From Squalus acanthias (lineage: Eukaryota): a DNA stretch of 64,000 bases. This document shows positions 48,101 through 64,000 of the stretch, piece by piece; positions within the stretch are counted from its first letter, which is position 1, and every line of letters begins with the position of its first letter. The notes beneath the pieces are model-generated. The model was not told the DNA's origin and ran no database searches. It was given only the letters and a program-made list of their open reading frames with translations. The translations under genes and the position numbers were made by a program. The DNA is taken from positions 125,490,001-125,554,000 of the forward strand of contig CM059431.1 in the NCBI GenBank assembly GCA_030390025.1, written 5' to 3'.

Positions 48101-50900
48101 GTGCGGAATTCTTAAAGTGCATCCAGGAGAGCTTTTTGAGCCAGCATGTAGAAAGTCCTACAAGAGAGGGGGCGGTACTGGACCTAATTCTAGGAAATGT
48201 AGCTGGGCAAGTGATAGAAGTGTCAGTAGGAGAGCATTTTGGTGACAGTTACCATGATTCGGTGAGATTTAAAGTAGTCATGGAAAAGGACAAAGATGGA
48301 CCAGAAATAAAGTTTCTAAATTGGGGGAAGGCCGATTTTAATATGATAAGGCAGGATCTGGCCAAAGTGGACTGGGATCAGCTACTTGTAGGAAAATCCA
48401 CATCAGAGCAGTGGGAGTCATCAGAAAGGAAATAGAGAGAGTACAGCGCCAACATGTTCCCGTAAAGGTCAAGGGTGGGACCAACAAGTCCAGGGAACCC
48501 TGGATGTCAAGGGATATACAAGAATGGATTAGGAAAAAAAGGGAGGCTTTTGGCCGATACAAAGGACTAAAAACAGTGGAAGCCCTAGAGGAGCATAGAA
48601 AGTGCAAGGGGGTACTTAAAAAAGAAATTAAGAGAGCGAAGAGGGGGCATAAAAAAACACTGGTGGGCAAAATAAAGGAAAATCCCAAGGTGTTTTATAA
48701 GTATATTAAGGGCAAGAGGATATCCAGGGAAAGAGTGGGGCCCATTAGGGACCAAAGTGGCAATCTGTGTGTAGAGCTGGAAGATGTGGGTGAGGTTTTA
48801 AATGAATATTTTGCATCTGTGTTCACTATGGAGAAGGTTGATGTAGGCTTAGAAATCAGGCAGGGGGATTGTGATATACTTGTACAAATTAGCATTGAGA
48901 GGGAGGAGGTACTAGCGGTTTTAGCGGGCTTAAAAGTGGATAAATCCCCAGGCCCAGACGAGATGTATCCCAGGCTGCTGTGTGAGGCAAGGGAGGAGAT
49001 TGCAGGGGCTCTGACACAAATTTTCAGAACCTCTCTGGCCACAGGGGAGGTGCCAGAAGACTGGAGGACAGCTAATGTAGTACCATTATTCAAGAAGGGT
49101 AGTAGGGATAAACCAGGGAATTACAGGCCAGTGAGCCTAACATCAGTGGTAGGGAAATTATTCGAAAAAATTCTGAGGGACAGAATTAGTCTCCACTTGG
49201 AGAGGCAAGGATTAATCAAGGATAGTCAGCATGGCTTTGTCAGGGGGAGATCATGTCTAACCAATTTGATTGAATTATTCGAGGAGGTGACTAGGTGTGT
49301 GGATGAGGGTAGTGCAGTTGATGTAGTCTACATGGACTTCAGTAAGGCTTTTGACAAAGTCCCGCATGGGAGAATGGTCAAGAAGGTAAGAGCCCATGGG
49401 ATCCAGGGCAATTTGGCACATTGGATCAAAAATTGGCTTAGTGGCAGGAGGCAGAAGGTGATGATCGAAAGTTGTTTTTGTGACTGGAAGCCTGTGTCCA
49501 GTGGTGTATCGCAGGGATCGGTGCTGGGTCCCTTGCTGTTTGCAGTGTACATTAATGATTTAGATATGAATGTAGGAGGTATAATCAGTAAGTACGCAGA
49601 TGACACGAAAATTGGTGGAGTGGTAAATAGCGAGGAGGGAAGCCTCAGGCTACAGGACGATATAGACGGTTTGGTCAGATGGGCAGAACAGCGGCAAATG
49701 TAATTTAACCCTGAAAAGTGTGAGGTGATGCATTTTGGGAGGACTAACAAGGCAAGGGAATACACAATGAATGGAAGGACAGAGGATCAGAGGGACCTTG
49801 GTGTGCATGTACATAGATCCTTGAAGGCAGCAGGACAGGTAGATAAGGTGGTTAAAAAGTTATATGGGATACTTGCCTTCATTAGCCAAGGCATAGAATA
49901 TAAGAGCAGGGAGGTTATGATGGAGCTGTACAAAACGCTAGTTAGGCCACAGCTGGAATACTGTGTGCAGTTCTGGTCGCCACACTATAGGAAGGATGTG
50001 ATTGCATTGGAGAGGGTGCAGAGGAGATTCACCAGGATGTTACCTGGGCTGGAGCGTTTCAGCTATGAAGAGAGACTGGACAGGCTGCGGTTGTTTTCTT
50101 AGAGCAGAGAAGGCTGAGGGGGGACCTGATTGAGGTGTACAAAATTATGAGGGGCATAGATAGGGTAGATAGAAAGGAACTTTTCCCTTAGTAGAGGGGT
50201 CAATAACCAGGGGGCATAGTTTCAAGGTAAGGGGCAGGAGGTTTAGAGGAGATTTGAGGAAAAATGTTTTCACCCAGAGGGTGGTTGGAATCTGGAACTC
50301 ACTGCCTGAAAGGGTGGTAGAGGCAGGAACCCTCACAACATTCAAGAAGCATTTAGATGAGCTCTTGAAATGCCATAGCATACAAGGCTATGGACCAAGT
50401 GCTGGAAAATGGGATTAGAATAGACAGGGCTTGATGGCCGGCGCAGACACGATGGGCCGAAGGGCTTCTTTCTGTGCTGTATAACTCTATGACTCTATGA
50501 CAAAGCAATGTGGGTACCTTCGGTTGCATCCTAGACTTTAGAAAAGCTACCAACCCTGTAAAATATGATGGCCTATTTCACTGCTGCCCTGCTGTGATGC
50601 CAAAGGTGAGAAATTTGCCAGCTCTCCTGTCAACTGTGTCAGTCACCTGACTAATGCATGTCCACAGTGCAGCCTGGCTGGTATTATAGTGATCGCCATG
50701 GCTGTCTGAAATGACCTTGTGCCACAAAAGTTGAGTGTGGTCATCATCTTCATAGCCACAAAGTGATCAGTGTGGGCAGATGACCATGGCTGCAGGTCTT
50801 CGTGCAGTCGGTGGCAGATCTCCCCTATTGCCTTTTTGGTGAAGTGCAGTGTTCTCATATACATCTTCTTTCTAAGGTCCATATAGATCTTTGTTGCCTG
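45190..50900 (-). pseudogene. Old Harbinger transposase split by a CR1 and by another ~550-bp insert
   Basis: In order on the minus strand: LHFTKKAIGEIC...LNFCGTRSFQT (~50850-50700), DATEGTHIAL (~50530-50500), FLNRKSFHSMNVQIV (~46250-46200), MGDKTY (~45500) and GRALQYAP...CALYKLA (~45350-45280). Confidence 0.8.
46271..50499 (+). mobile_element. Near full-length CR1 LINE with disrupted ORF1 and ORF2
   Basis: ORF1 at 46553-47498 (CTAC...CSKC, leucine zipper, SGNH esterase-like GDTIVRG/VHIG/DGLHLN). ORF2 at ~47640-50418 (ITETW, GDFN, LDLIL, QGSVLGP, YADD). TCTATGA tail. A few stops and frameshifts. Confidence 0.96.
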
Positions 50901-52940: not shown

Positions 52941-53472
52941 TCTGTACTGTATGCTTATACCAGGAATTCAAGAGTGCTGCGGTTGCACATCAACTTTATG
53001 TATTGATCTAAAATCTCCATCCAGATGTCACTACTGAAAATTCAGACATTGCTTCACCTACCTGTGAAATTAGCTCCTGGGGCTTGGAATCCTGTATAAA
53101 AAAGTTAGCCAGCACTGAATTTGTATTCCACGCATTTATTGTATTATTAGCAACAATGGTGTAAGGCATCTGCCATTAGGCACTTTTAGATTTATTTTGC
53201 ACTCTGGGTCCAAGTCGTGGGATAGCAATCTACATGCATCATTTTCCTATGATTAAATAATTCAGTGGACCCATATTCTATACAGATCAGCCCCAGAACT
53301 GGAAACTCACTCAATTGCACGTGTGCAAGTGGACTTGTAAGGGATTCTCCTGACCCTGCGTGTCTCGTAGCCTGTGAGATTCACGCGGCTCTGTGCAGCC
53401 TGTATGTCAGTGCGGGTCTAGGCCTGGTTGCCTGTTCTGGTCTCCAGCCAGTCTGGGAACACTAGACACACC

Positions 53473-55256
53473 TGTGAGTGGTTCGAATCACTCTCCCTTA
53501 CGGTTCTAGACACTGGACTTAGATGCGAGAGCAGTAATGGAGATAAAACTCATGTAGACTTGGTTTGAATGGTACGAAATGGAAAATCTTTATTGCATGA
53601 TACTTAAAATTATGAAATACATGTCATACGCACAGATTAATGACAGTACAATCTTACAAACGGTTATAATCAATCTTAGGGAAACGAGGAACGAACGGCA
53701 CAACGTGAATAGGGCACACATTACAAATATCCTTAATCTTTACACCCTCCCCTATCAATATCTATCCTAAACTAGCTTCGTAGGATCTCGAGACTCATGC
53801 TCACCACTCGTAATAACTCGGAGAAATCCCGAATAGCTGATCGGATGTTTTTCACCGCAGCACCCACGTGTCGGTCAGGAGATCTCCTGGTCCCACTTGT
53901 TTACTGGCTTCTGCTGCTCGGGCTAGTAGGCTGGACCGTCTGCTGTAGTGAAGACCTCTGTTGGTTGACTTCACAGTTTAGTCGAGGAGCACCGTTGTCA
54001 ATATCACTGATACGATGTGTTTGCACAGTCCAGTTATCATTGATGCAATATGTTTTGTTAGAAGTTTAAAGAAGAAAACTTCCTGTCGAGAAGACTTGGC
54101 TGATCGACCTACAGGCGCGGTCGGGATTTACTGACCGTGGCGATGGATATGGTCTTCTTCTCTTCTCCTCTCATCTCATCTCATCTCATCTCATCTCGGG
54201 CCTTTGGTTCCGCTGCCAGTTACCAACATAGGTCTTCGTTACGCGACACGAGGTAGATCCGAACGGATCAGAAAGTTCAACAGTCTTTTCAGAAGAGGCA
54301 ACAGGCACGCAGAAGCCTAACTACGAGCACACAGGAGCAGCCACGAAGTTACGAATCGACCGGATAAAACACAGGAGCAGCCACGATGATAAAAGCAGCA
54401 AGCGAGCAAGAGCGGCAAGAGCAAGAGAGCGAATGGACGGTTTGGGGCCTGCAATTATAGTGCAAAAATCTTCCGTTTCCCGCCCAACTATAATGTCCAT
54501 TCTTTTGTTTAGGGTTTGGCGCCCAAATGTCTTGTATGGGTGATCTCCGTCCTTAATGGGTTTCGGGGCTACTCATGAATGTTTGAGTACCTGTTAATAT
54601 TTCTCCCATTGTTAAATCGGTCGGTGTTCTCCCTGGAGGGGTTTGGGGCTTCCAAGTGTCCTGTATAACTACCTGCTAACGGCTCTCTCATCGTAGAGCC
54701 GTTGGGAGTTTACATATTAATGTCCTTTGGATGGGCCCTTAAGTACTTGGTACAATGGCTTTCCTTTGCACCTGGGAGACCGATTCCAGTATCTATGTTT
54801 ATACTGCAAACCCATAATGTCTCGGGTATTATCTTCACTGTGCTGAATCGTTATCGATCTTGCAAAAATGTTTAATGGAACGCCATCTTGTCTGCCTGTT
54901 GAAAAGTCTAGAATGTTCTGTCACGAGGTGCGGCGGCCATTTTACAGGCTGCTTGTGTCCAATTTAAACCTGGCAGCATTCTGCTGAAATAAAAGCTGTT
55001 TGAACGAAACTTTGTGTTTTCTCCTTATTAATCAAATCGCGATAATTGCGAATTCTACAGTCCCTCCTGTTGATGCGAATAACTCCGCTTATCGTATCAA
55101 AAATCTCAGCGGTGAGCAATCTTATCTCGATTTCACTCCGAATCCAGTAAATTAATCCCATAAATTTTAACTTAACTAGGGTCTCTGTGTCGTCCTTATT
55201 TCCCAAGAAAATCACATTTTATATCACCGTAGGCATCATTTGCCCTTAAACTTACA
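53473..55256 (-). repeat. Putative 3' LTR (~1784 bp)
   Basis: Minus strand begins TGTAAGT directly after a purine tract and ends ACTCACA (6/7 terminal inverted repeat). AATAAA at 53594-53589 and TATAAT at 54459-54454. The 5' LTR is not in the window, so boundaries are inferred. Confidence 0.7.
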
Positions 55257-55481: not shown

Positions 55482-57833
55482 TTACACGGTGCTCTCGTCG
55501 TGCACGCGCACGTAACGTTCTCGCCACTCTCCCGTGTTCTCATGCTTGGTGAGGCGCTTGTCTCTTTTACAATGTATGAACAATAGGTACACTACAATAA
55601 ACACTTGACAGACGACTAAAATGTGGGAGGCTATTCTGATCCATGAAGGCACTTCAATATTCGTGAACAGATTCCACCACGGTGGAACCACTATGTCCAA
55701 GATGTCTGTTCCTATCTCGACAGTTTTCTGCTCTAATGTATAAAAATGCTTCTGTGATACCGCGACGGCTTTCAGAAGTTTGGTTAAATGCTCAGGGAGA
55801 GGGGGAATGAGGTATCCAAAATGCGCGACAAATCGCTGCAAGTCGGTGAAATTCTCTTTTACTGTGAGATGAACAGTGGATGGTTCAGGGATTGGGATAA
55901 TTCGCTGTTGTGCTACTTGAACTTCAGCCCTGGGTTTAAAACAGAAACTGCTGTCACTCACCGGACACCGGCTACGGTTTCCATGCTGGTAGTGTTGCGC
56001 TGCAGTGGTAACACAATATGTTCCACCCCCGATGTATGCTACCTGCGGAGGCACATGATCTTGTGCCATTGCCTCCATGGTGCAATTCATGGACTTGGCG
56101 CCAGCCGTTCTGAACCCGCACTGTGGTGTTAAAAAGGCATTCAAGTGCTGGGGGCACAGTATTATGTGTGCTCCCCTGCCACGACAACCAGAGAGATCTG
56201 TACCTGTCATCGTTTGCTCCCAGCGGATGACGTAAGGTGGAACCGCTGCATAACGAATGTGGGCTCCCCCCTGAATGACACCAATGTTCTCTACCCGATA
56301 TACCGGGGCGGGCTTTGCTGTGTTGCCCAAAACCGGCATGCGTAATACTATTCCCATAATAGTATGGTTTGAACGTCCGCAGTCCACGGGGACTGGGTAA
56401 GCTTCTGAAGCTAGCCTGAGCTGGCACGGACTTAATGCGTTCTGAAAAGGGTGGAGCGCCCGCAGGTGTTTGTTACTTATCCAGGACGGAACCAAACCTT
56501 GTTTTAAATCCTCCAAATTACTGCGGCCCTCGCCCAGTAACCACGCCCCGTAAAGCACGCACACCTCGTTCTGCGCAGCCTGATCGGATGCATTCCGATC
56601 TTCCCTGATCAGGGCATTTACCGTACGCGCATGTTTCTCCAGCTCTGCTATGATTTCCTTTAAATGGAGAGTCATGGCTTGGTCCTCATGCAGACCCGAC
56701 CCTACCACTTTATTCTCATCTGTTAGAATGTCTTTTAACTGTGTTTTTAAACCATTAATCTGGGTCTGCAGCTCCACACTGTCTAGAGCGTTGACCACAG
56801 ATGTCCCTGTGTTAAAAGCAGTGAACGCATTGTTCACCAAACACCTTCTTTGCCTCCCTACTTGATCCAAAACTTCCTGCGGTGCGGTGTATAAACTTGC
56901 CTTATCAATTTCTGCAAAATCAAACTCGTAAAATTGTCTGAACATCTTGGTCAACAGGACCTGATACAACTGTTCCGTCTTTTTGGGGCACCACTCTGGT
57001 AACCGTACCTCAGTGAGATTTAAAATCACCGAGGCCACCGCGTAATGTACCCCCTGAAATAGTATCTGGTCTGTGGGGACCAGTACCAAACCGTTCCCGG
57101 GTCCCTTACTAGTTTTAGGGCACCCTTCTTCCTCAGTTAGAACCACCGGAATCGTGGGCGGGGCTTTGCGTGGGCGCGTAATGAGCTCAGTGGCATTTAC
57201 TGGGATCGGGGAGAATGGGGCTCCGCACCCCCTGGTGCTCGCATCCCACCTCATCCCCTGTCCGTTATCCTGCCACTGATTAATAAAGAATATGGAGATG
57301 CCTTTGGGGCAAACGTACTTTGACCCCCACATACAAACATAAATCCCCTCATCCGGTTCCCACCATTTGTCCCAACAGACTTTCACTTGTCCGTTTGTCC
57401 CCGTAATTGTCCGATGGGTATTATTACCCAGTCGTTCCCACTCGACCGAAGAGTTCCTCATAGTTTTGCTCAGCTTTCGCAGCCACCACCATCGGCTCAA
57501 TGGGACATCCCCACTACAGGTCAAACAAATCCGTTTGCCGACGGTGACGCTGATCCTGGGTGCGATGATCCGTACTTTGGGGCACATTAAAGAAGTCTCT
57601 TTGTAGGCAAACCCCGATGTGCTGGAATACTCCGTTGAGTTCGTTCCCAGCCATCCTGGCCACCTTCCCTTGTGGAAATAGGTGCTGGTCCCCTCTGCCT
57701 TCCGTCTTCCGGTCCCATCCACCGCGATGGGGGCCGTGTCCCCGGAACATCCAAACACCACGACATCCTTGGTGTGGCCTCGATAGGCCAATCCACATCC
57801 GATTGCCACGAGCAATACTAGAAGTCGTTCCAT
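55482..57833 (-). CDS. env: Envelope glycoprotein, 783 aa: signal peptide, Ig-like domain, F-like class I fusion ectodomain, TM anchor
   Basis: Hydrophobic N-terminus; VTVGKRICLTC...W...DEGIYVC; RQRR furin site at aa 327-330 followed by a fusion-peptide-like segment and heptad repeat; Cys-rich region; TM ILVVCQVFIVVYLLFI. Confidence 0.92.
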   Translation of the reverse strand: MERLLVLLVAIGCGLAYRGHTKDVVVFGCSGDTAPIAVDGTGRRKAEGTSTYFHKGRWPGWLGTNSTEYSSTSGFAYKETSLMCPKVRIIAPRISVTVGKRICLTCSGDVPLSRWWWLRKLSKTMRNSSVEWERLGNNTHRTITGTNGQVKVCWDKWWEPDEGIYVCMWGSKYVCPKGISIFFINQWQDNGQGMRWDASTRGCGAPFSPIPVNATELITRPRKAPPTIPVVLTEEEGCPKTSKGPGNGLVLVPTDQILFQGVHYAVASVILNLTEVRLPEWCPKKTEQLYQVLLTKMFRQFYEFDFAEIDKASLYTAPQEVLDQVGRQRRCLVNNAFTAFNTGTSVVNALDSVELQTQINGLKTQLKDILTDENKVVGSGLHEDQAMTLHLKEIIAELEKHARTVNALIREDRNASDQAAQNEVCVLYGAWLLGEGRSNLEDLKQGLVPSWISNKHLRALHPFQNALSPCQLRLASEAYPVPVDCGRSNHTIMGIVLRMPVLGNTAKPAPVYRVENIGVIQGGAHIRYAAVPPYVIRWEQTMTGTDLSGCRGRGAHIILCPQHLNAFLTPQCGFRTAGAKSMNCTMEAMAQDHVPPQVAYIGGGTYCVTTAAQHYQHGNRSRCPVSDSSFCFKPRAEVQVAQQRIIPIPEPSTVHLTVKENFTDLQRFVAHFGYLIPPLPEHLTKLLKAVAVSQKHFYTLEQKTVEIGTDILDIVVPPWWNLFTNIEVPSWIRIASHILVVCQVFIVVYLLFIHCKRDKRLTKHENTGEWRERYVRVHDESTV

Positions 57834-58124: not shown

Positions 58125-61100
58125 TTAAATTCTGAGAAGGCTGCTGCGAGCTCTTCCCGACGGTGGGAGGGCACTGACCCTTCCCTCTGATCTGCCGCAG
58201 CCTGTTACTGCTGCGATGTGGCCTGTCTCTACCCGGGTTATCTTAACCTGAATTTTACGCCTTGGGGCAGTCTGGGGACATGACCACATCCTCCTGGGCT
58301 GGGGTTCTCTACTTGACCTACGGGGAGTTGCTATGGGCGGGGGTTCCGTGACGGACGGACCGGGTTCCGAGACCTCCAACGGGACGACCTGGGGTTCCAT
58401 CACAGTCGCCGGCTCCGCCTCCGCTGACTCCGCCTCCCTAACCCCGGGGCTGGCAGTTCGTGGCTCCGCCCTGCTCGGCCCAGCAGGCGGCCCTTCACTC
58501 GTGATCTCTGCCTCCCCTGAGGACTGGACGTTCAAAGCGGGCGGCCACACCTCTGGGAACCACATTGGTACTCTCTGTGCTCCTATAGCGGCTGGCCCTG
58601 CCTCCTCTAGCTCCTCCCTCCTGTCCTCGGGACCTGCAGCTTGTGTGTCCACCCCGTGTGGATCTCTACCTATCGGCCCCAATCCTCCCAGACCGTTCCT
58701 CAGGAACCACCCGTCATCATCACTATGCTCATCTGCACTATCCTCATCTGACCAGGGAACCCTGGGTTCTTCGTCATCTAACCCCCAACTCCAGAAAAAC
58801 GCTGCATGATCGTCCGGGATGTCCCTTCCCCTGATGCAAGCTGCTACGCCTGCCTGTGTGCCTTGTGGTCCTACCTGGGGCTGTGTTTTCCCATTGGCGG
58901 GATTTACCCCTGTAGTTTTCCCCTGCGCACCCGGCTGGTACAGTTTACATTGGTTTATGTGGAACCACTTAGTGCGCCGAGGTACTTTTACGGCGTAAAC
59001 CATGGGACTCGCCTTGTCTACAATGTTGTAGGGTCCCATATACAGTGGTTCCAGACTCCCTACTCTGGCGTAGTTTCTGACCATGACCTGGTCTCCTACT
59101 TCCCATTCCCGCGTTTTGCAGGGTTCCAGCAACAAGCGATTGCCCTGATGCTGCCTTCCCATGTTCCCAGCCGCCTGCTCATAAACTTGCTTCAGGCGCT
59201 CCAAGAGAGTTTGGGCGAACTTGTCCCTGCTTATCTCTTGAAGCTGACCCTCAGTGAGCACCGGGGCTAGCACATGGGTGGGGGTTCGCATGAGCCTGCC
59301 GGTCATTACCTCGTGCGGGGAGTACCCCGTACTTTTTGACTGACTGGCCCGGACCCCCATGAGGACTAAAGGCAGAACTTCCGCCCATTTTTGGGGCGAG
59401 TTCCTAGTCTCTTTCCTCAATTTCTCCTTCAGGGTCCGGTTCATACGTTCGACAATCCCGGATGACTGGGGATTGTGTGCTACGTGCCACTTCCCTTCAA
59501 TGCCCAAAAGCATGAGGGTGTTCTGCATCACCTGGCCGGTGAAATGACTCCCTTGGTCTGACTCCACAAAACGGGGGAGTCCCCACCGCGAGAACACTTC
59601 CCGGACCAAGATTTTTGCTGTACCCAGTGCCGTAGCTGTTCGACAAGGGAAGGCTTCCACCCACTTGGAAAACACATCCACCAGGACGAGGCAGTACTTA
59701 TAACCTCCCTGGGTGGTGGGCAGGGGTCCTATATAGTCGATCTGTATCGACTGCCATGGTCCCTCTACCCTTCTTACGTGTCCCATGGGCACCTTCCTTT
59801 TCTGGGGGTCTGGGTTGTTTGCAGCGCACACAAGACAGTTTGCACAGAACTCGCGGACTTGTTCCCTGAGCCCTGGCCACCATCCCGCTTGCTCTACCCG
59901 TTGCCAGGTAACCTCGGGCCCGGGGTGCCCTGCCCCTGGTCCCTCGTGAGCCAACTGGAGGAATTCCCTCCTGTGCTGCTGCGGCACAACCCACTGCTCC
60001 CCGCGGAACAGCATGCCTTCCTTAACTGAGAGGGTTGCCGTACTGTACGGACCTTCTACCTGCCTCCCCTCAGCAATCGTTTTTAGGACTGCTTTTAGGG
60101 CGGGATCCTGGGCTTGGACGGTCTTAAGGTCTAGGGGCAATGCTACCCTGGTGTTCCCGGTATTCCCGTCCCCGCCTCGGACCGCTGCTATGGGTCCGGT
60201 CCTATAGGGGTTCCAGAAAGTGCCGTCGCGGGCACCCTCCCTGGCTAGCGCATCTGCCTGCCGGTTGCCCTCCCCACGGGGCTCTGCGGAGGAGTGAGCT
60301 TTCACCTTATGGATGAAAATCTCCCCTTCCTCCCCTACTGCTGCTGCTAAGATCTTTTCCAGCAAGGGCTTCACCGTTAAAGGTCGCCCGTCCGCGGAGG
60401 TGTATCCGCGGCGGGACCAAATGGCCAGGTATTCCGTACACGAATTGCAGGTGAACATACTGTCCGAGCAAATCGTGTATGGGGTTGGGAAAATGTCTGG
60501 GTGGGTCACCACGTACACCACGGCAGACAGCTCAGCCTGCTGCGCGCTCATGGTGCTAGGGAGCTTGATCGCCAGGGCAAGGTCTGCCGCAGGGTCATAA
60601 ACTCCACACCCTGTGAGTCGCTCGCCAGCAGACACTGTGCTAGACCCATCAACATAAATCTCGCGCCCAGTGGGATGTATCCCGGCCCGTAAACCTATGT
60701 TGACGTCCCACACCCCTTCCACCGAACACCGGTGGGCTGTACCGGGGTATACCAAATTGGCCGCAAGCCTGGGCTCGCAAAGACCTTTTACTCTAAGATC
60801 CAACTGGGAGAGAAGAAGGGTCCAACGCGCAATGCGTGCGCTGCTTACGGTCCCGTCTTTAATCCTCCCATCCAGAAGCATCTTAGTTGGTGTGTGATGT
60901 GTGAGGAGAGTGATGGGAGAGAGCCCTGTGAAGATCGCTGATCTTTTCACAGCCCAATGCGTGGCTAAAAGGTGCCTTTCGCAATTGGAAAAACTTCTCT
61001 CCACATCCGTTAATACCCTGGATGAATAGACAACCGGCCTCAGCTTGCCGTGACGCTCTTGGAGCAGCACGGCGCTTAAGCTGTCCCCGCTGGCAGCTAC

Positions 61101-62609
61101 CTCCAGGAAAAACTCCTTCCCCCCATCTATGGCCCCTAAGGCTGGCGCGGTCTGCAGATCCCTTTTTAACTTCTCGAAGGCTGCTTGGCAGCCCTCGTCC
61201 CAAAGCCACTCCACCCCCTTATGGAGGAGTCGGAGGAGCGGCGCCGCTGTGGCCGCATAATCTTCGATAAAATCCCTGCAGTAACCGGTCAGTCCCAAGA
61301 AGGACCTCACACCCCTTACGTTGTTGGGAATCGGTAATTCTTGCACCGACTCCCTCCTTGCTTTGTCTATGGCTCTTTCCCCAGCGCGTAGGGTCAGTCC
61401 CAGGAATTTTACTTCCTGCTGACCGATACGTGCTTTCTTTGGGTTTACTTTAAAACCCTTTCTCGCTAACAGCTCCAATAACTCGTCCAGTAGTGGTCCG
61501 TGCTCCTCCCTTGAGTCCGTAAATAGGAGCAAATCATCCACATACTGTACTATCTGATTGGGCTGACTAAACTCCTTTAAACTTCCTGCCATACACTGGT
61601 GAAAAATACTGGGGCTATTGTGGAAACCCTGTGGCAAACAGTTCCACGTGTACTGTTGCCCTTTAAACGTAAAGGCAAACTTGTACTGGTCCTCTCGCCG
61701 CAGCGGGATGGACCAAAAACCGTTCGAGATATCCAGCACCGTGAACGTGGTCGCCGACGCTGGGATGCTCCCTATTAGGTCAGCAACTGCTGCTACTGTA
61801 GGCGCGCAGGCGGGAATGTTACTGTTAAGGACTCTGTAGTCCACCGTGGCTCTCCACGAATTATCCGGCTTCCTAACCGGCCATAATGGGGAGTTCACGT
61901 GTGTGGCTATCGGCCTCAACACGCCCTGCTGCACCAAGGAAGACATTGCTGCCTCCATATCGGGTTCTGCTTCTTTGGGGAAGTTATACTGCTTTTGGGG
62001 TCGGGTCATGGGGTCCCCATCTACGCTGACCTCAAACCCGACCACCCTCCCACAATCGTGCTTGTGGGTTGCAAACGCGTGCATATTATCTGACACGTAC
62101 GTTTGCATGTCCGTTGGGACATCTGCGACCATAAGCCTGAGGTCGTAGCCTCCGGATGGCTGTACGGTACACAGGACCCCCGTTTCTTCCTCTCCTTGAA
62201 TTACCATTACCTCGCCTTTTTCACCTTTAGCCCCCCAGAGACAGTGATTTCTGAGGTCCACGAGGATCCCGTGTCCCGCTAGGAGATCGGACCCGAGAAT
62301 ACCTCTTCCACCCCCCTTTTGCCATGCCATCAGTATACACTTCCACTTAAGGCGAAGTGTTCCTAAACGAATGGATAGCGGGAGGGAAAACGTGCCAGCC
62401 TGTTCTTTCCCTGTGAACCCTGCTAGCGTGAATGGGACCTTGGTAGATAGCGGCGAGTCAAAAGGGTCATCTGTATGGATTATGGTGCAAGACGCTCCCG
62501 TGTCCAACAAATAACTGCCCTTCTGTTTCTCTACCTCCATCTCCACCACAGGTCGCCTCCACGCATCATAGCTGAGCGGACACAGGTAGACGGGCTGTGC
62601 TGGTTCTAG
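58125..62609 (-). CDS. pol: Pol polyprotein: protease, RT, degenerate RNase H tether, RNase H, integrase, C-terminal tail
   Basis: LLDTGAS; LDISNGF, LPQGFHNSP, YVDD; FFLEVAAS; YVDGS, QAEL, SDS, KAH, ADAL; H..H..CLVC; IDYIG, SDQG, ERMN; GPY. Open and in frame from the gag stop. Confidence 0.97.
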   Translation of the reverse strand, partial: LEPAQPVYLCPLSYDAWRRPVVEMEVEKQKGSYLLDTGASCTIIHTDDPFDSPLSTKVPFTLAGFTGKEQAGTFSLPLSIRLGTLRLKWKCILMAWQKGGGRGILGSDLLAGHGILVDLRNHCLWGAKGEKGEVMVIQGEEETGVLCTVQPSGGYDLRLMVADVPTDMQTYVSDNMHAFATHKHDCGRVVGFEVSVDGDPMTRPQKQYNFPKEAEPDMEAAMSSLVQQGVLRPIATHVNSPLWPVRKPDNSWRATVDYRVLNSNIPACAPTVAAVADLIGSIPASATTFTVLDISNGFWSIPLRREDQYKFAFTFKGQQYTWNCLPQGFHNSPSIFHQCMAGSLKEFSQPNQIVQYVDDLLLFTDSREEHGPLLDELLELLARKGFKVNPKKARIGQQEVKFLGLTLRAGERAIDKARRESVQELPIPNNVRGVRSFLGLTGYCRDFIEDYAATAAPLLRLLHKGVEWLWDEGCQAAFEKLKRDLQTAPALGAIDGGKEFFLEVAASGDSLSAVLLQERHGKLRPVVYSSRVLTDVERSFSNCERHLLATHWAVKRSAIFTGLSPITLLTHHTPTKMLLDGRIKDGTVSSARIARWTLLLSQLDLRVKGLCEPRLAANLVYPGTAHRCSVEGVWDVNIGLRAGIHPTGREIYVDGSSTVSAGERLTGCGVYDPAADLALAIKLPSTMSAQQAELSAVVYVVTHPDIFPTPYTICSDSMFTCNSCTEYLAIWSRRGYTSADGRPLTVKPLLEKILAAAVGEEGEIFIHKVKAHSSAEPRGEGNRQADALAREGARDGTFWNPYRTGPIAAVRGGDGNTGNTRVALPLDLKTVQAQDPALKAVLKTIAEGRQVEGPYSTATLSVKEGMLFRGEQWVVPQQHRREFLQLAHEGPGAGHPGPEVTWQRVEQAGWWPGLREQVREFCANCLVCAANNPDPQKRKVPMGHVRRVEGPWQSIQIDYIGPLPTTQGGYKYCLVLVDVFSKWVEAFPCRTATALGTAKILVREVFSRWGLPRFVESDQGSHFTGQVMQNTLMLLGIEGKWHVAHNPQSSGIVERMNRTLKEKLRKETRNSPQKWAEVLPLVLMGVRASQSKSTGYSPHEVMTGRLMRTPTHVLAPVLTEGQLQEISRDKFAQTLLERLKQVYEQAAGNMGRQHQGNRLLLEPCKTREWEVGDQVMVRNYARVGSLEPLYMGPYNIVDKASPMVYAVKVPRRTKWFHINQCKLYQPGAQGKTTGVNPANGKTQPQVGPQGTQAGVAACIRGRDIPDDHAAFFWSWGLDDEEPRVPWSDEDSADEHSDDDGWFLRNGLGGLGPIGRDPHGVDTQAAGPEDRREELEEAGPAAIGAQRVPMWFPEVWPPALNVQSSGEAEITSEGPPAGPSRAEPRTASPGVREAESAEAEPATVMEPQVVPLEVSEPGPSVTEPPPIATPRRSSREPQPRRMWSCPQTAPRRKIQVKITRVETGHIAAVTGCGRSEGRVSALPPSGRARSSLLRI

Positions 62610-64000
62610 TCATGGGGCACTATTAGACGGTCCTGCGGCACCTACGGGGCCGGTTGCGACCGCCACCTGTCCACGCGCATTCAAAACCATCTTGCGCATG
62701 GCTCCTAACACTGCTTCGAGGTCGTCGGGGGAGGTGGGTGCCTTTGCTTCCTTAGGCGGGACAGGCGCCTGGGCTCGGACCGCGGGATTTTTATCCTTGG
62801 AATCCTTCCAAGGGTTCCTGCAGTGCTTGCGCCAGTGCCCTGTCTTCCCACACCCGTAACAGGCATTACTTGCCTGTGGGGCGCGATTACCCTCCTGATG
62901 CCACTCTCTTTGAGCTGGGGCTGCGGGTCGTACCTCATGTACTCTTCCCTTAAAGGGACGTGTCGTCATACCCCTTATGTTACGGTAACCTAACGTGAGT
63001 CGATTCAAGACCGACTCTTCCGTAAGGTTGAGGTCATTGGGATCGAACCAGGCCTTTGCCTGCTCTCTAACGGCTGGTAAACTGTTGGCTATTATGCACC
63101 TAAGCCAATGAATTAAAGCGGCGCCTTCCACATCTTCGCGCTCGGGCGCACCTAGACAGCTGCGCTCATATACTGGCCACAGCCTGTCGGCAAAAACCTT
63201 CGGGGGTTCTCCCTCCATCTGCACTGTCTGTCCCACTCTAGCAAACGGACCTCCGTCGTTCGCTCCCACTACTTCTAGGACCTCATTTTTCAATTCCTCA
63301 TAACTTTTATTTTCCCTCTTGCTCTCGCCTGAGAGACACTGAAGGACCGAGCTGTCTAACGAGAACAGCAGCATTTTTGCTGTCTCCCCATCATCGCAGC
63401 CGTTGATGGCTGCGGCTTGCTCAACTTCCCTGAAATGGACGGAAGGGTCGTCTACCTCGGTCAGCTTCCTTACGTGGTTTATCATGGCTCTCAGCTGATG
63501 TGAACTGTGAGGCAACACCAGCTGTCCGAGGAGATCCCCCGGTTCTTCCCCACCGTTTCTGCTTGGGCCCCTTTTAACCCCCGTTACTGGATACAACGAT
63601 CCCTTTTCTACTTCCTTTTCAACGGGCTCTTTTGTTTCTTCCGTTGCTTCCTCCCTAACCCAGGTTTCTGAATAGCTGGGTGGCGCGGAGGGCGCAGTGG
63701 CTACTACTTCTTCTGCTTTACTTGGTGGGGAATTTCTAAATCTCTCATTTACTAGCGGCTGGCGCGCCGACGGATTGATAAGGCACACCATGCCGTTCGC
63801 ATTATTCACGGCCTTTTTGAGGCTCTCTATCTCTTTTTGGCAGGCGCTATGGTCGGCTCCCTGAAACTTATCCTCAAGGGCCAACTTATACGCCGACCTA
63901 ACCCCCATTAAGCTCTCTTCCTGAGTTCTTATCTGGGCAGCTTGGCGGTTACATCTTTCCTTCATCCTACTCTCGTTCAATTTTGCTTCAGTGATCTGGC
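62610..64000 (-). CDS. gag: Gag (5'-incomplete; frame open to the window edge)
   Basis: Coiled-coil-like N-terminal part, PSAPPSY, helical capsid-like region, and zinc knuckle CYGCGKTGHWRKHC. Confidence 0.93.
   Translation of the reverse strand, partial: QITEAKLNESRMKERCNRQAAQIRTQEESLMGVRSAYKLALEDKFQGADHSACQKEIESLKKAVNNANGMVCLINPSARQPLVNERFRNSPPSKAEEVVATAPSAPPSYSETWVREEATEETKEPVEKEVEKGSLYPVTGVKRGPSRNGGEEPGDLLGQLVLPHSSHQLRAMINHVRKLTEVDDPSVHFREVEQAAAINGCDDGETAKMLLFSLDSSVLQCLSGESKRENKSYEELKNEVLEVVGANDGGPFARVGQTVQMEGEPPKVFADRLWPVYERSCLGAPEREDVEGAALIHWLRCIIANSLPAVREQAKAWFDPNDLNLTEESVLNRLTLGYRNIRGMTTRPFKGRVHEVRPAAPAQREWHQEGNRAPQASNACYGCGKTGHWRKHCRNPWKDSKDKNPAVRAQAPVPPKEAKAPTSPDDLEAVLGAMRKMVLNARGQVAVATGPVGAAGPSNSAP

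Follow-up and report, generated by a model that had tools for sequence, protein, structure and literature searches.

We analysed a 64,000-nucleotide stretch of Squalus acanthias DNA (GCA_030390025.1, contig CM059431.1, positions 125,490,001 to 125,554,000; called the window here, and used for all coordinates) in which the minus strand carries a provirus with gag, pol and env genes. The envelope protein (Env) encoded by env joins two parts: a predicted fusion body with the fold of paramyxovirus and pneumovirus fusion (F) proteins and, in front of it, an N-terminal module with an immunoglobulin (Ig)-like domain. We propose, with moderate confidence, that this Ig-like domain forms the membrane-distal N-terminal head of a retroviral Env with F-type fusion machinery, and that this head binds a receptor and can be swapped.

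Provirus and gene layout

The gene order on the minus strand is gag, an in-frame TGA, pol and env, in three collinear frames (Table 1). The long terminal repeats (LTRs) were located by blastn of the flanks; the 1725-bp repeat has a second copy, 99.884% identical, past the window end, which makes the provirus about 12.8 kb long and young. It lies in a host genome of 3.7 Gb. A single TGA (62610-62612, minus strand) closes gag, and pol goes on in the same frame with the protease motif LLDTGAS, which implies at the sequence level that Gag-Pol would be made by stop-codon read-through rather than by frameshifting. This arrangement is known from gamma- and epsilonretroviruses.

The Pfam families found in pol were a protease, RVT_1, RT_RNaseH_2 (tether-type), a second RNase_H, Integrase_H2C2 and rve. 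When the reverse transcriptase (RT) and RNase H part was compared with solved chains, gammaretroviral RT was the closest (E = 8e-69), followed by the foamy virus (2e-57) and Ty3 (1e-40) enzymes. After the integrase, pol has a tail of about 260 aa (pol aa ~1215-1474; 58125-58900, minus strand) which is rich in Pro, Glu, Ser and Ala and matched no Pfam family. The gap between the pol stop and the env ATG is about 290 bp. A 125-aa open reading frame (ORF) on the plus strand at 49725-50102 is unrelated to the provirus; judging by eye, we take it to resemble the reverse transcriptase of a non-LTR retrotransposon in its C-terminal part.

Table 1. Provirus features and Env segments, in window coordinates
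Feature	Position	Strand	Env aa	Description and basis
3' LTR	53336..55060	minus		1725 bp; blastn of flanks
5' LTR	window-equivalent 64426-66150, past window end			blastn of flanks
gag	62610..64000, runs off window end	minus		one CCHC knuckle; ends in TGA
pol	58125..62549	minus		protease, RT, tether-type RNase H-like domain, RNase H, integrase; Pfam
env ORF	55482..57833	minus		783 aa plus stop; ORF list, translation
Hydrophobic N-terminus	57786..57833	minus	1-16	probable signal peptide; sequence MERLLVLLVAIGCGLA
Conserved N-terminal segment	57582..57785	minus	17-84	GCSG ... RWPGWLGSNST-YSS-F-Y; Cys29, Cys84; invariant alignment columns
Ig-like V/I-type domain core	57318..57581	minus	85-172	strands A' to F; Cys106, Trp117, D-E-G-I-Y-V-Cys167
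Post-Ig segment	57222..57317	minus	173-204	conserved Cys175, Cys203; probable G strand ISIFF; alignment
Pro-rich linker	57099..57221	minus	205-245	9 Pro in 41 aa; conserved Cys-Pro junction (Cys238) at end
F2-like part	56844..57098	minus	246-330	ends in furin-type site RQRR
Furin-type site RQRR	56844-56855	minus	327-330	sequence motif
F1-like part	55485..56843	minus	331-783	fusion-peptide-like stretch, helices, beta domains, transmembrane segment, short tail
Long heptad helices			349-444	in F1-like part
Beta domains			477-645	in F1-like part
Membrane-proximal helix			681-711	in F1-like part
Transmembrane segment	55566-55646	minus	~730-756	

The F-like fusion body

An AlphaFold model of full-length Env was built with a 40-sequence alignment and had a mean predicted local distance difference test score (pLDDT) of 61. 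The body was modelled mostly at 80-95 over aa 240-310 and 420-650, with a few 10-residue blocks at 68-70, and the model was poor elsewhere; in the F2-like part, the strands at aa 249-272 and the helix at aa 284-305 reached 86-94. Foldseek against the PDB gave 227 matches at E<=0.001. The best was the F protein of human parainfluenza virus 3 (hPIV3; 1ztm, E = 2.4e-10, probability 1.00), and the matches listed were all paramyxo- or pneumovirus F proteins, including those of respiratory syncytial virus (RSV), Langya virus, parainfluenza virus 5 and Nipah virus. Thus the F-like body named in the original prediction is borne out by fold, and the model gives Env aa ~240-650 the paramyxo/pneumovirus F fold. 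The Pfam family of these proteins, PF00523 (Fusion_gly), had no match at E<=1 in Env or in 15 of its relatives. Since the likeness is structural only, we call the body F-like and not a member of PF00523.

Like the F proteins of hPIV3, RSV and Nipah virus, Env has, besides the ectodomain fold, a furin-type site before a hydrophobic stretch, heptad helices and a C-terminal anchor. The sequence thus holds together the class I features RQRR, a fusion-peptide-like stretch, heptad helices and a transmembrane anchor, and the relatives whose alignments were listed have R-x-K/R-R or a near variant at the RQRR position. The differences from the viral F proteins are that the identity is only 8-15% with no Pfam match, that about 220 additional residues separate the signal peptide of Env from its F2-like part, and that Env is retroviral and has no separate attachment gene beside it.

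Among predicted viral structures (BFVD) the best match was the glycoprotein of Sanxia water strider virus 4 (E = 2.8e-15), with several baculovirus F/Ld130 proteins at about 1e-10 and paramyxovirus F0 also among the best matches. Neither of the two groups that match best by predicted structure, arthropod mononegavirus (arli/lispivirus) F-like glycoproteins and baculovirus F, is retroviral. The Env models of walleye epidermal hyperplasia virus and walleye dermal sarcoma virus stood at BFVD ranks 6 and 17, with scores resembling those of the coronavirus, torovirus and filovirus spikes found there. An epsilonretrovirus link through these two Envs was rejected (TM-scores 0.09-0.24, root-mean-square deviation (rmsd) >40 Å), and we take the walleye matches as generic class I helices with no specific relationship.

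The nearest retroviral precedent is the lokiretroviruses, whose Env was reported to be related to paramyxo/pneumovirus F with a PF00523 match at 2.2e-7, and which were reported in Xenopus tropicalis (Wang & Han, Mol Biol Evol 2021, PMC7947760). The scheme of that Env shows sp, RXKR, fp, cc and tm without an N-terminal domain, and neither 'Immunoglobulin' nor 'Ig-like' occurs in the text and the available part of the supplement. The present provirus resembles the lokiretroviruses in its gag-pol-env order, in the tether-type RNase H-like domain followed by a second RNase H, in the H2C2 integrase and in the F-like Env, and relatives of its Env occur in frogs including X. tropicalis. It differs in the N-terminal head and in the lack of a PF00523 match at E<=1. 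The likeness is one of pol architecture and of the F-like Env.

The N-terminal Ig-like domain

The original prediction assigned an Ig-like domain to Env aa 85-172, and the coordinates and frame agree by arithmetic, with aa 85 starting at 57581 and aa 172 ending at 57318 on the minus strand. As hallmarks of a V/I-set domain we took L-x-C, a Trp about 11-14 residues later and D-x-G-x-Y-x-C about 55-75 residues after the first Cys. All of them were found in this order, as Leu104-Thr-Cys106, Trp117 and Asp161-Glu-Gly-Ile-Tyr-Val-Cys167, and the strings quoted for them are in the translation: the A'-B string RISVTVGKRICLTC with Cys103 and Cys106, the C-strand string RWWWLRK with Trp117 and the F-strand string EPDEGIYVC with Cys167. 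In the six frames of the window, the pattern C-x(8-16)-W-x(30-65)-D-x-G-x-Y-x-C occurs only here. Composition-preserving shuffling of Env produced it in 6 of 20,000 trials (39 of 20,000 in a relaxed form), and as a sequence pattern it is beyond chance. The Pro-rich linker was also found as described, so that the Ig-like domain stands N-terminal to the F-type body in one ORF, after a signal-like N-terminus and before the linker.

The domain was then compared with known families. The only Pfam family reported for Env was Ig_3 (11.2 bits, E = 0.56, aa 88-167, profile positions 5-74 of 78); the N-terminus alone gave 13.6 bits (E = 0.099) and the relative P0010 gave 17 bits (E = 0.0085). The two top matches of phmmer in the PDB, at E about 1, were the Ig domain of a junction adhesion molecule and the light-chain variable domain of an antibody. 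We also made an Ig profile from a seven-sequence alignment of aa 78-205, trimmed so that zinc-finger sequence from the chimeric gene model P0004 was removed. Its first PDB match was the IgV domain of CRTAM (E = 0.0064 and 0.012, profile positions 13-103), in an alignment that spans nearly the whole V domain and in which the L-x-C, Trp and DEGxYxC positions coincide. Up to E 10, seven of the ten matches belonged to the Ig superfamily (IgSF) by molecule name.

An AlphaFold model of the N-terminal module alone (aa 17-246, 8 sequences, mean pLDDT 44) had its strands in the expected order A'-B-C-C'-D-E-F. With this model, Foldseek against the PDB returned V domains of antibodies, nanobodies, IgNAR, T-cell receptors (TCR) and CD79b with a best E of 3.5e-3, and the compact Ig alignments had an rmsd of 2-4 Å over 71-88 columns of what is a low-confidence model. 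In a VIA-align comparison with 48,161 representative chains, the highest Z was 7.1 (rmsd 2.4 Å, 85 residues). Wherever the title named the chain, the best 50 rows were V- or I-set domains (IgNAR V, CD79b, CD8, TCR, titin, obscurin, NCAM, Dscam), and the other rows were chains of antibody complexes. Protein-language-model neighbours of aa 78-205 were Ig families at 0.87-0.89. The G strand is probably at aa ~178-184, beyond 57318-57581, where the full-length model has a beta strand at aa 180-184. The segment in front of the domain, aa 17-84, was mostly below pLDDT 50 in the models.

Several of these values weigh against an Ig assignment. Ig_3 scored 11-17 bits against a curated cut-off of 30, and no curated threshold was reached; the Ig region had a pLDDT of 40-64 in the full-length and 47-72 in the N-terminal model; Foldseek with the N-terminal model had no match at E<=0.001; no VIA match had Z>=8, and a Z under 8 may reflect a mere common arrangement; and the language-model scores were below 0.9, a level treated as leads only. 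With profile and structure scores all sub-threshold and low model confidence, the hallmarks could be a chance pattern in some other beta-rich viral domain, and hhalign found no significant likeness to the N-terminal modules of distant relatives. We consider this quite unlikely, as five methods gave Ig V/I domains and nothing else coherent, the motif was so infrequent among the shuffles, and the invariant residues are exactly the Ig core. The lines of evidence are independent and individually weak, and all agree. On the strength of this agreement, of the Ig-core residues and of the low shuffle frequency, the region of aa 85-172 probably has an Ig-like V/I-type fold. The profile and structure checks gave Ig_3 as the sole family over aa 88-167, the Ig strand order and Ig-domain matches, all at sub-threshold scores or low model confidence; because the scores lie under the curated thresholds, we use the term Ig-like and do not assign the domain to any Pfam family.

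Cellular V/I-set domains (CRTAM V, IgNAR V, CD79b, CD8 and the I-sets of titin and NCAM) are the best profile and fold matches of the head and have the same Cys...Trp...D-x-G-x-Y-x-Cys spacing, A' pattern and strand order. The head differs from them in scoring below the Pfam thresholds, in the extra conserved Cys103, Cys153 and Cys175 and in its viral-specific flanks. Paramyxovirus F itself contains an Ig-like domain II, and since F-type proteins already have such a beta-sandwich, the head could be an internal duplicate of it that was not acquired from outside. This was not supported when the Ig-region profile was aligned by hhalign with Env aa 247-783, which gave a 15-column match at P 0.12, and the Cys...Trp...DxGxYxC hallmarks are typical of cellular V/I-set domains; a duplication of the body's own sandwich domain is highly improbable.

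The hallmark residues, Cys106, Trp117 and Cys167 among them, are kept in 6-7 shark and skate relatives at 49-72% identity. Cys103, Leu104, Cys106, Trp117 and Trp132 were invariant in all seven sequences, and (D/E/Q)-G-(I/M)-Y-x-C was kept in all six that reach the F strand. Cys106 and Cys167, which would form the B-F disulfide of an Ig domain, are both conserved. Other cysteines, at aa 29, 153, 175 and 203 and in most cases at aa 84, are conserved too, which points to additional disulfides. Within the Ig B strand there is also a conserved C-x-x-C at aa 103-106 (57516-57527), which is CLTC, CLVC or CLSC in the relatives; Cys103 may form an extra surface disulfide with Cys153 of the neighbouring E strand. 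The N-terminal region is conserved about as much as the body, and in the skate relative the identity is 74% for aa 9-399 and 70% for aa 653-781. The N-terminal module was found in related Envs of Rhinoraja (71-74%), Pristiophorus (53%) and Rhincodon (partial) and in two further records (50-53%). It is therefore kept in several sharks and a skate and is not peculiar to the present element.

We next compared the window copy with other copies of env. In 29 other genomic copies there were 87 synonymous and 20 non-synonymous distinct variant codons, and the ratio of synonymous to non-synonymous was 10:1 in the Ig region and 16:7 over aa 17-246. These copies were ranked by protein score, which biases the count by removing non-synonymous change and so speaks against reading too much into it; the 9-25 synonymous differences per copy cannot be created by such a ranking. 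In contigs of four public runs, a sample not chosen by protein similarity and so free of this bias, 34 of 40 variants were synonymous (the best 40 of 90), against a neutral expectation of 23-31%. As judged from these variants, Env, head included, has diversified under purifying selection, which fits Env-dependent spread by infection or reinfection and not passive copying.

Related heads, origin and proposed function

A HMMER scan of 1.84 billion representatives gave 48 matches at E<=0.001, exclusively Env relatives. The 19 named ones came from sharks, a skate and frogs (Xenopus, Pelodytes, Mantella), the closest being from a skate and sharks. Only 8 of the 48 cover the N-terminal module. In six long and distant relatives (P0012, P0013, P0019, P0023, P0035 and P0047), the alignment starts at query aa 221-237, that is, at the end of the Pro-rich linker, at the Cys-Pro motif (Env Cys238), which was visible in all relatives whose alignments were listed. 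The N-terminal 140-180 residues of these distant relatives had no significant alignment with the Env Ig domain or with one another, and thus the distant Envs carry other modules. Homology between the N-terminal modules of different Env groups was not supported, as hmmsearch (best E 0.11 in a 65-sequence set) and hhalign (P 0.016-0.36) were both not significant. Some gene models of Pristiophorus and Heterodontus (P0003, P0004, P0037) consist of Env-family fragments joined to Niban-like, zinc-finger and FBXO15 proteins and are either annotation chimeras or exonised pieces of endogenous retroviruses.

Three of the four other head types compared look like IgV domains. The Chiloscyllium head (P0013, auto-named 'Ig-like domain-containing protein' in UniRef) had 75 PDB matches, nearly all antibody heavy-chain variable (VH) domains or butyrophilin V domains, and the head of Pelodytes ibericus (P0019) had 36, nearly all VH; the best E was 0.0039 for both. 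The P0019 head ends in W-G-E-G-I-L-I-E-I, which in the best PDB match is aligned to the antibody J-region strand W-G-x-G-T-x-V-T-V. For P0035 the PDB matches were mostly IgV receptors (best E 0.17) and Pfam V-set was at E 0.045 (14.4 bits against a cut-off of 26). The fourth type, of Mustelus and Pristiophorus (P0012), showed no Ig signal against the PDB, its best match being feline immunodeficiency virus protease at E 0.3, a resemblance we regard as noise. Envs of this type can therefore do without an Ig head, which tells against our proposal. In P0012 and P0023 the head, a third kind, is about 140 aa long and Cys-rich, with a CFTC/CVQC motif and a ...LYVCF... strand. As far as these sequences go, the heads are the fast-changing or exchangeable part of the protein and the body is the constant part.

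The original prediction held that the Ig domain was captured from the host. No cellular donor was found in the HMMER scan, which returned Env relatives alone, and a profile search among longer proteins gave five matches, all of them again Env relatives. Because the domain is common to elements of several elasmobranch orders, the sequences indicate that it was not recently captured by the present element; an ultimate host origin is plausible, since the hallmarks are those of cellular V/I-set domains. The observation behind the prediction is hence confirmed and its interpretation in part: the head on an F-like Env stands, a recent host capture does not, and the function is one that we infer.

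For that function we propose the following scheme. Env would be made as a single precursor with a signal peptide, an N-terminal module of about 220 aa, the F2-like part, RQRR and the F1-like part with its transmembrane anchor, the module consisting of the conserved 68-aa segment, the Ig-like domain, the Cys-containing segment and the Pro-rich linker. A furin-type protease, to judge from the motif, would cleave at RQRR and give a surface subunit (aa 17-330) and an F1-like membrane subunit (aa 331-783). The Ig-like head would bind a host-cell surface molecule and so attach the virion, and the F-like body would then perform class I fusion. The head would be replaceable, as relatives retain the body and the Cys-Pro junction while their heads are mutually unalignable. 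In paramyxoviruses attachment is the task of a separate HN, H or G protein, and by analogy the Ig-like head is somewhat more probably than otherwise an attachment domain that replaces it, because it sits at the position of class I receptor binders, is conserved and under selection and is followed by a flexible Pro-rich linker. By position and analogy, receptor binding is the most plausible function of the head.

One Env group here has an N-terminal module that is not of Ig type, and the body may hence suffice by itself. The head could be a cap or regulator which shields or clamps the prefusion body, carries glycans and controls triggering, with attachment elsewhere on the body, as pneumovirus F is able to do on its own. 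The N-terminal module has four N-glycosylation sequons (NxS/T at aa 65, 127, 137 and 213), and the modules differ strongly among relatives, as shield regions often do. We consider such a role unlikely, as purifying selection and a conserved core are more in keeping with a domain that folds and functions than with a loose shield, and Ig V-type heads at this position were described as receptor-binding in gamma-type Envs in the available part of the source (bioRxiv 10.1101/2024.03.17.585361). The original prediction also named an immune decoy. Since it resembles IgSF proteins, the head might engage a host immune receptor or ligand when displayed on virions and infected cells. The V domain that it matches best by profile is that of an immune adhesion receptor, CRTAM, at an E of 0.006 that shows type and not orthology. 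The library scans gave no host donor or close cellular homologue, and the head is covalently built into a fusion protein's surface subunit, whereas viral decoys are usually secreted or separate proteins; we regard an immune-modulating role as improbable.

In murine leukaemia virus (MLV) SU, a Pro-rich region follows the head. Gamma-type retroviral Envs offer a close parallel to a receptor-binding Ig-like head in their N-terminal IgV-like receptor-binding domain (RBD-C), which was transferred between Env lineages; in one alpha-like Env the IgV domain was captured from host SIRP (Hotzel, bioRxiv 10.1101/2024.03.17.585361, in the part available). As with the gamma-type RBD described there, the present head would be an independently folding Ig-type domain at the N-terminus of the surface subunit, exchangeable among lineages and with a Pro-rich region after it. 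It differs in that the fusion machinery behind it is F-type: its CxxC (Cys103-Leu-Thr-Cys106) lies in the Ig B strand, the membrane subunit has no CX6CC to pair with it, and by the Cys positions aa 331-783 contain no two cysteines side by side, so the present Env is not gamma-type. No RBD chains of MLV or feline leukaemia virus were among the matches of the Ig profile, Foldseek or VIA searches.

With IgV-like RBDs already known on gamma-type and alpha-like Envs and the P0013 record automatically named Ig-like, an Ig domain on a retroviral Env is not new as such. In the literature found, which excluded subscription-only papers, we met no description of an Ig-like domain on an F-like retroviral Env. 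There was no mention of one in the accessible parts of PMC9040795, 10.1101/2023.10.26.564294, PMC13709493, PMC11521997, PMC12440569, 10.1101/2021.11.05.467493, PMC6001957 and 10.64898/2026.05.06.723177. The unalignable heads and the J-like W-G-x-G strand of the frog head lead to a more tentative and rather doubtful extension, in which the F-type fusion proteins of shark, skate and frog retroviruses became self-sufficient by taking up interchangeable IgSF V-type heads on the fixed Cys-Pro junction, through repeated capture or exchange of ultimately host-derived domains, in an arrangement that would have arisen independently in gamma-type Envs.

The family to which the provirus belongs is abundant. 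All 57 env copies scored in the same genome, from 12,893 first-look candidates, were full-length, without stops and 99-100% identical in protein, and when the 738 bases for Env aa 1-246 served as a DNA query, 2,327 candidates came up, of which the 40 scored were all 99-100% identical. These counts are lower bounds on a very large and very recent family, with hundreds of copies at least. LTRs that are 99.88% identical, the many intact copies and the synonymous excess together suggest recent or ongoing infectious spread. In 14 public runs, six organism codes each had about half of the sampled 31-base words of env, at roughly 98% identity; since they do, a near-identical env is present in more than one labelled organism. 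The runs consisted of contigs, and neither joints nor splice ends showed in env, a result that has no bearing on its expression.

These results describe a retrovirus in which the F-type fold comes with a probable receptor-binding head of its own, while a paramyxovirus-type F normally needs a separate attachment protein. F-type retroviral Envs were reported only in 2021 and drawn without a head (PMC7947760), and IgV heads are known only on gamma-type and alpha-like Envs, as far as the available parts of these sources go. The idea of Env heads as swappable modules would thus be extended to a second, unrelated fusion machinery. The provirus also places a retrovirus family with F-type Envs in cartilaginous fishes, where the lokiretrovirus survey, in the part available (PMC7947760, supplementary Fig. 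S1), had lokiretroviruses in none of six chondrichthyan genomes. Recent or ongoing infectious spread of such a young, intact and abundant family would matter for the genome biology of sharks and skates. If the reading of interchangeable heads is true, the youth of the family, its intact copies and the purifying selection on it would make it a tractable natural system for how a fusion protein gains a receptor-binding domain.

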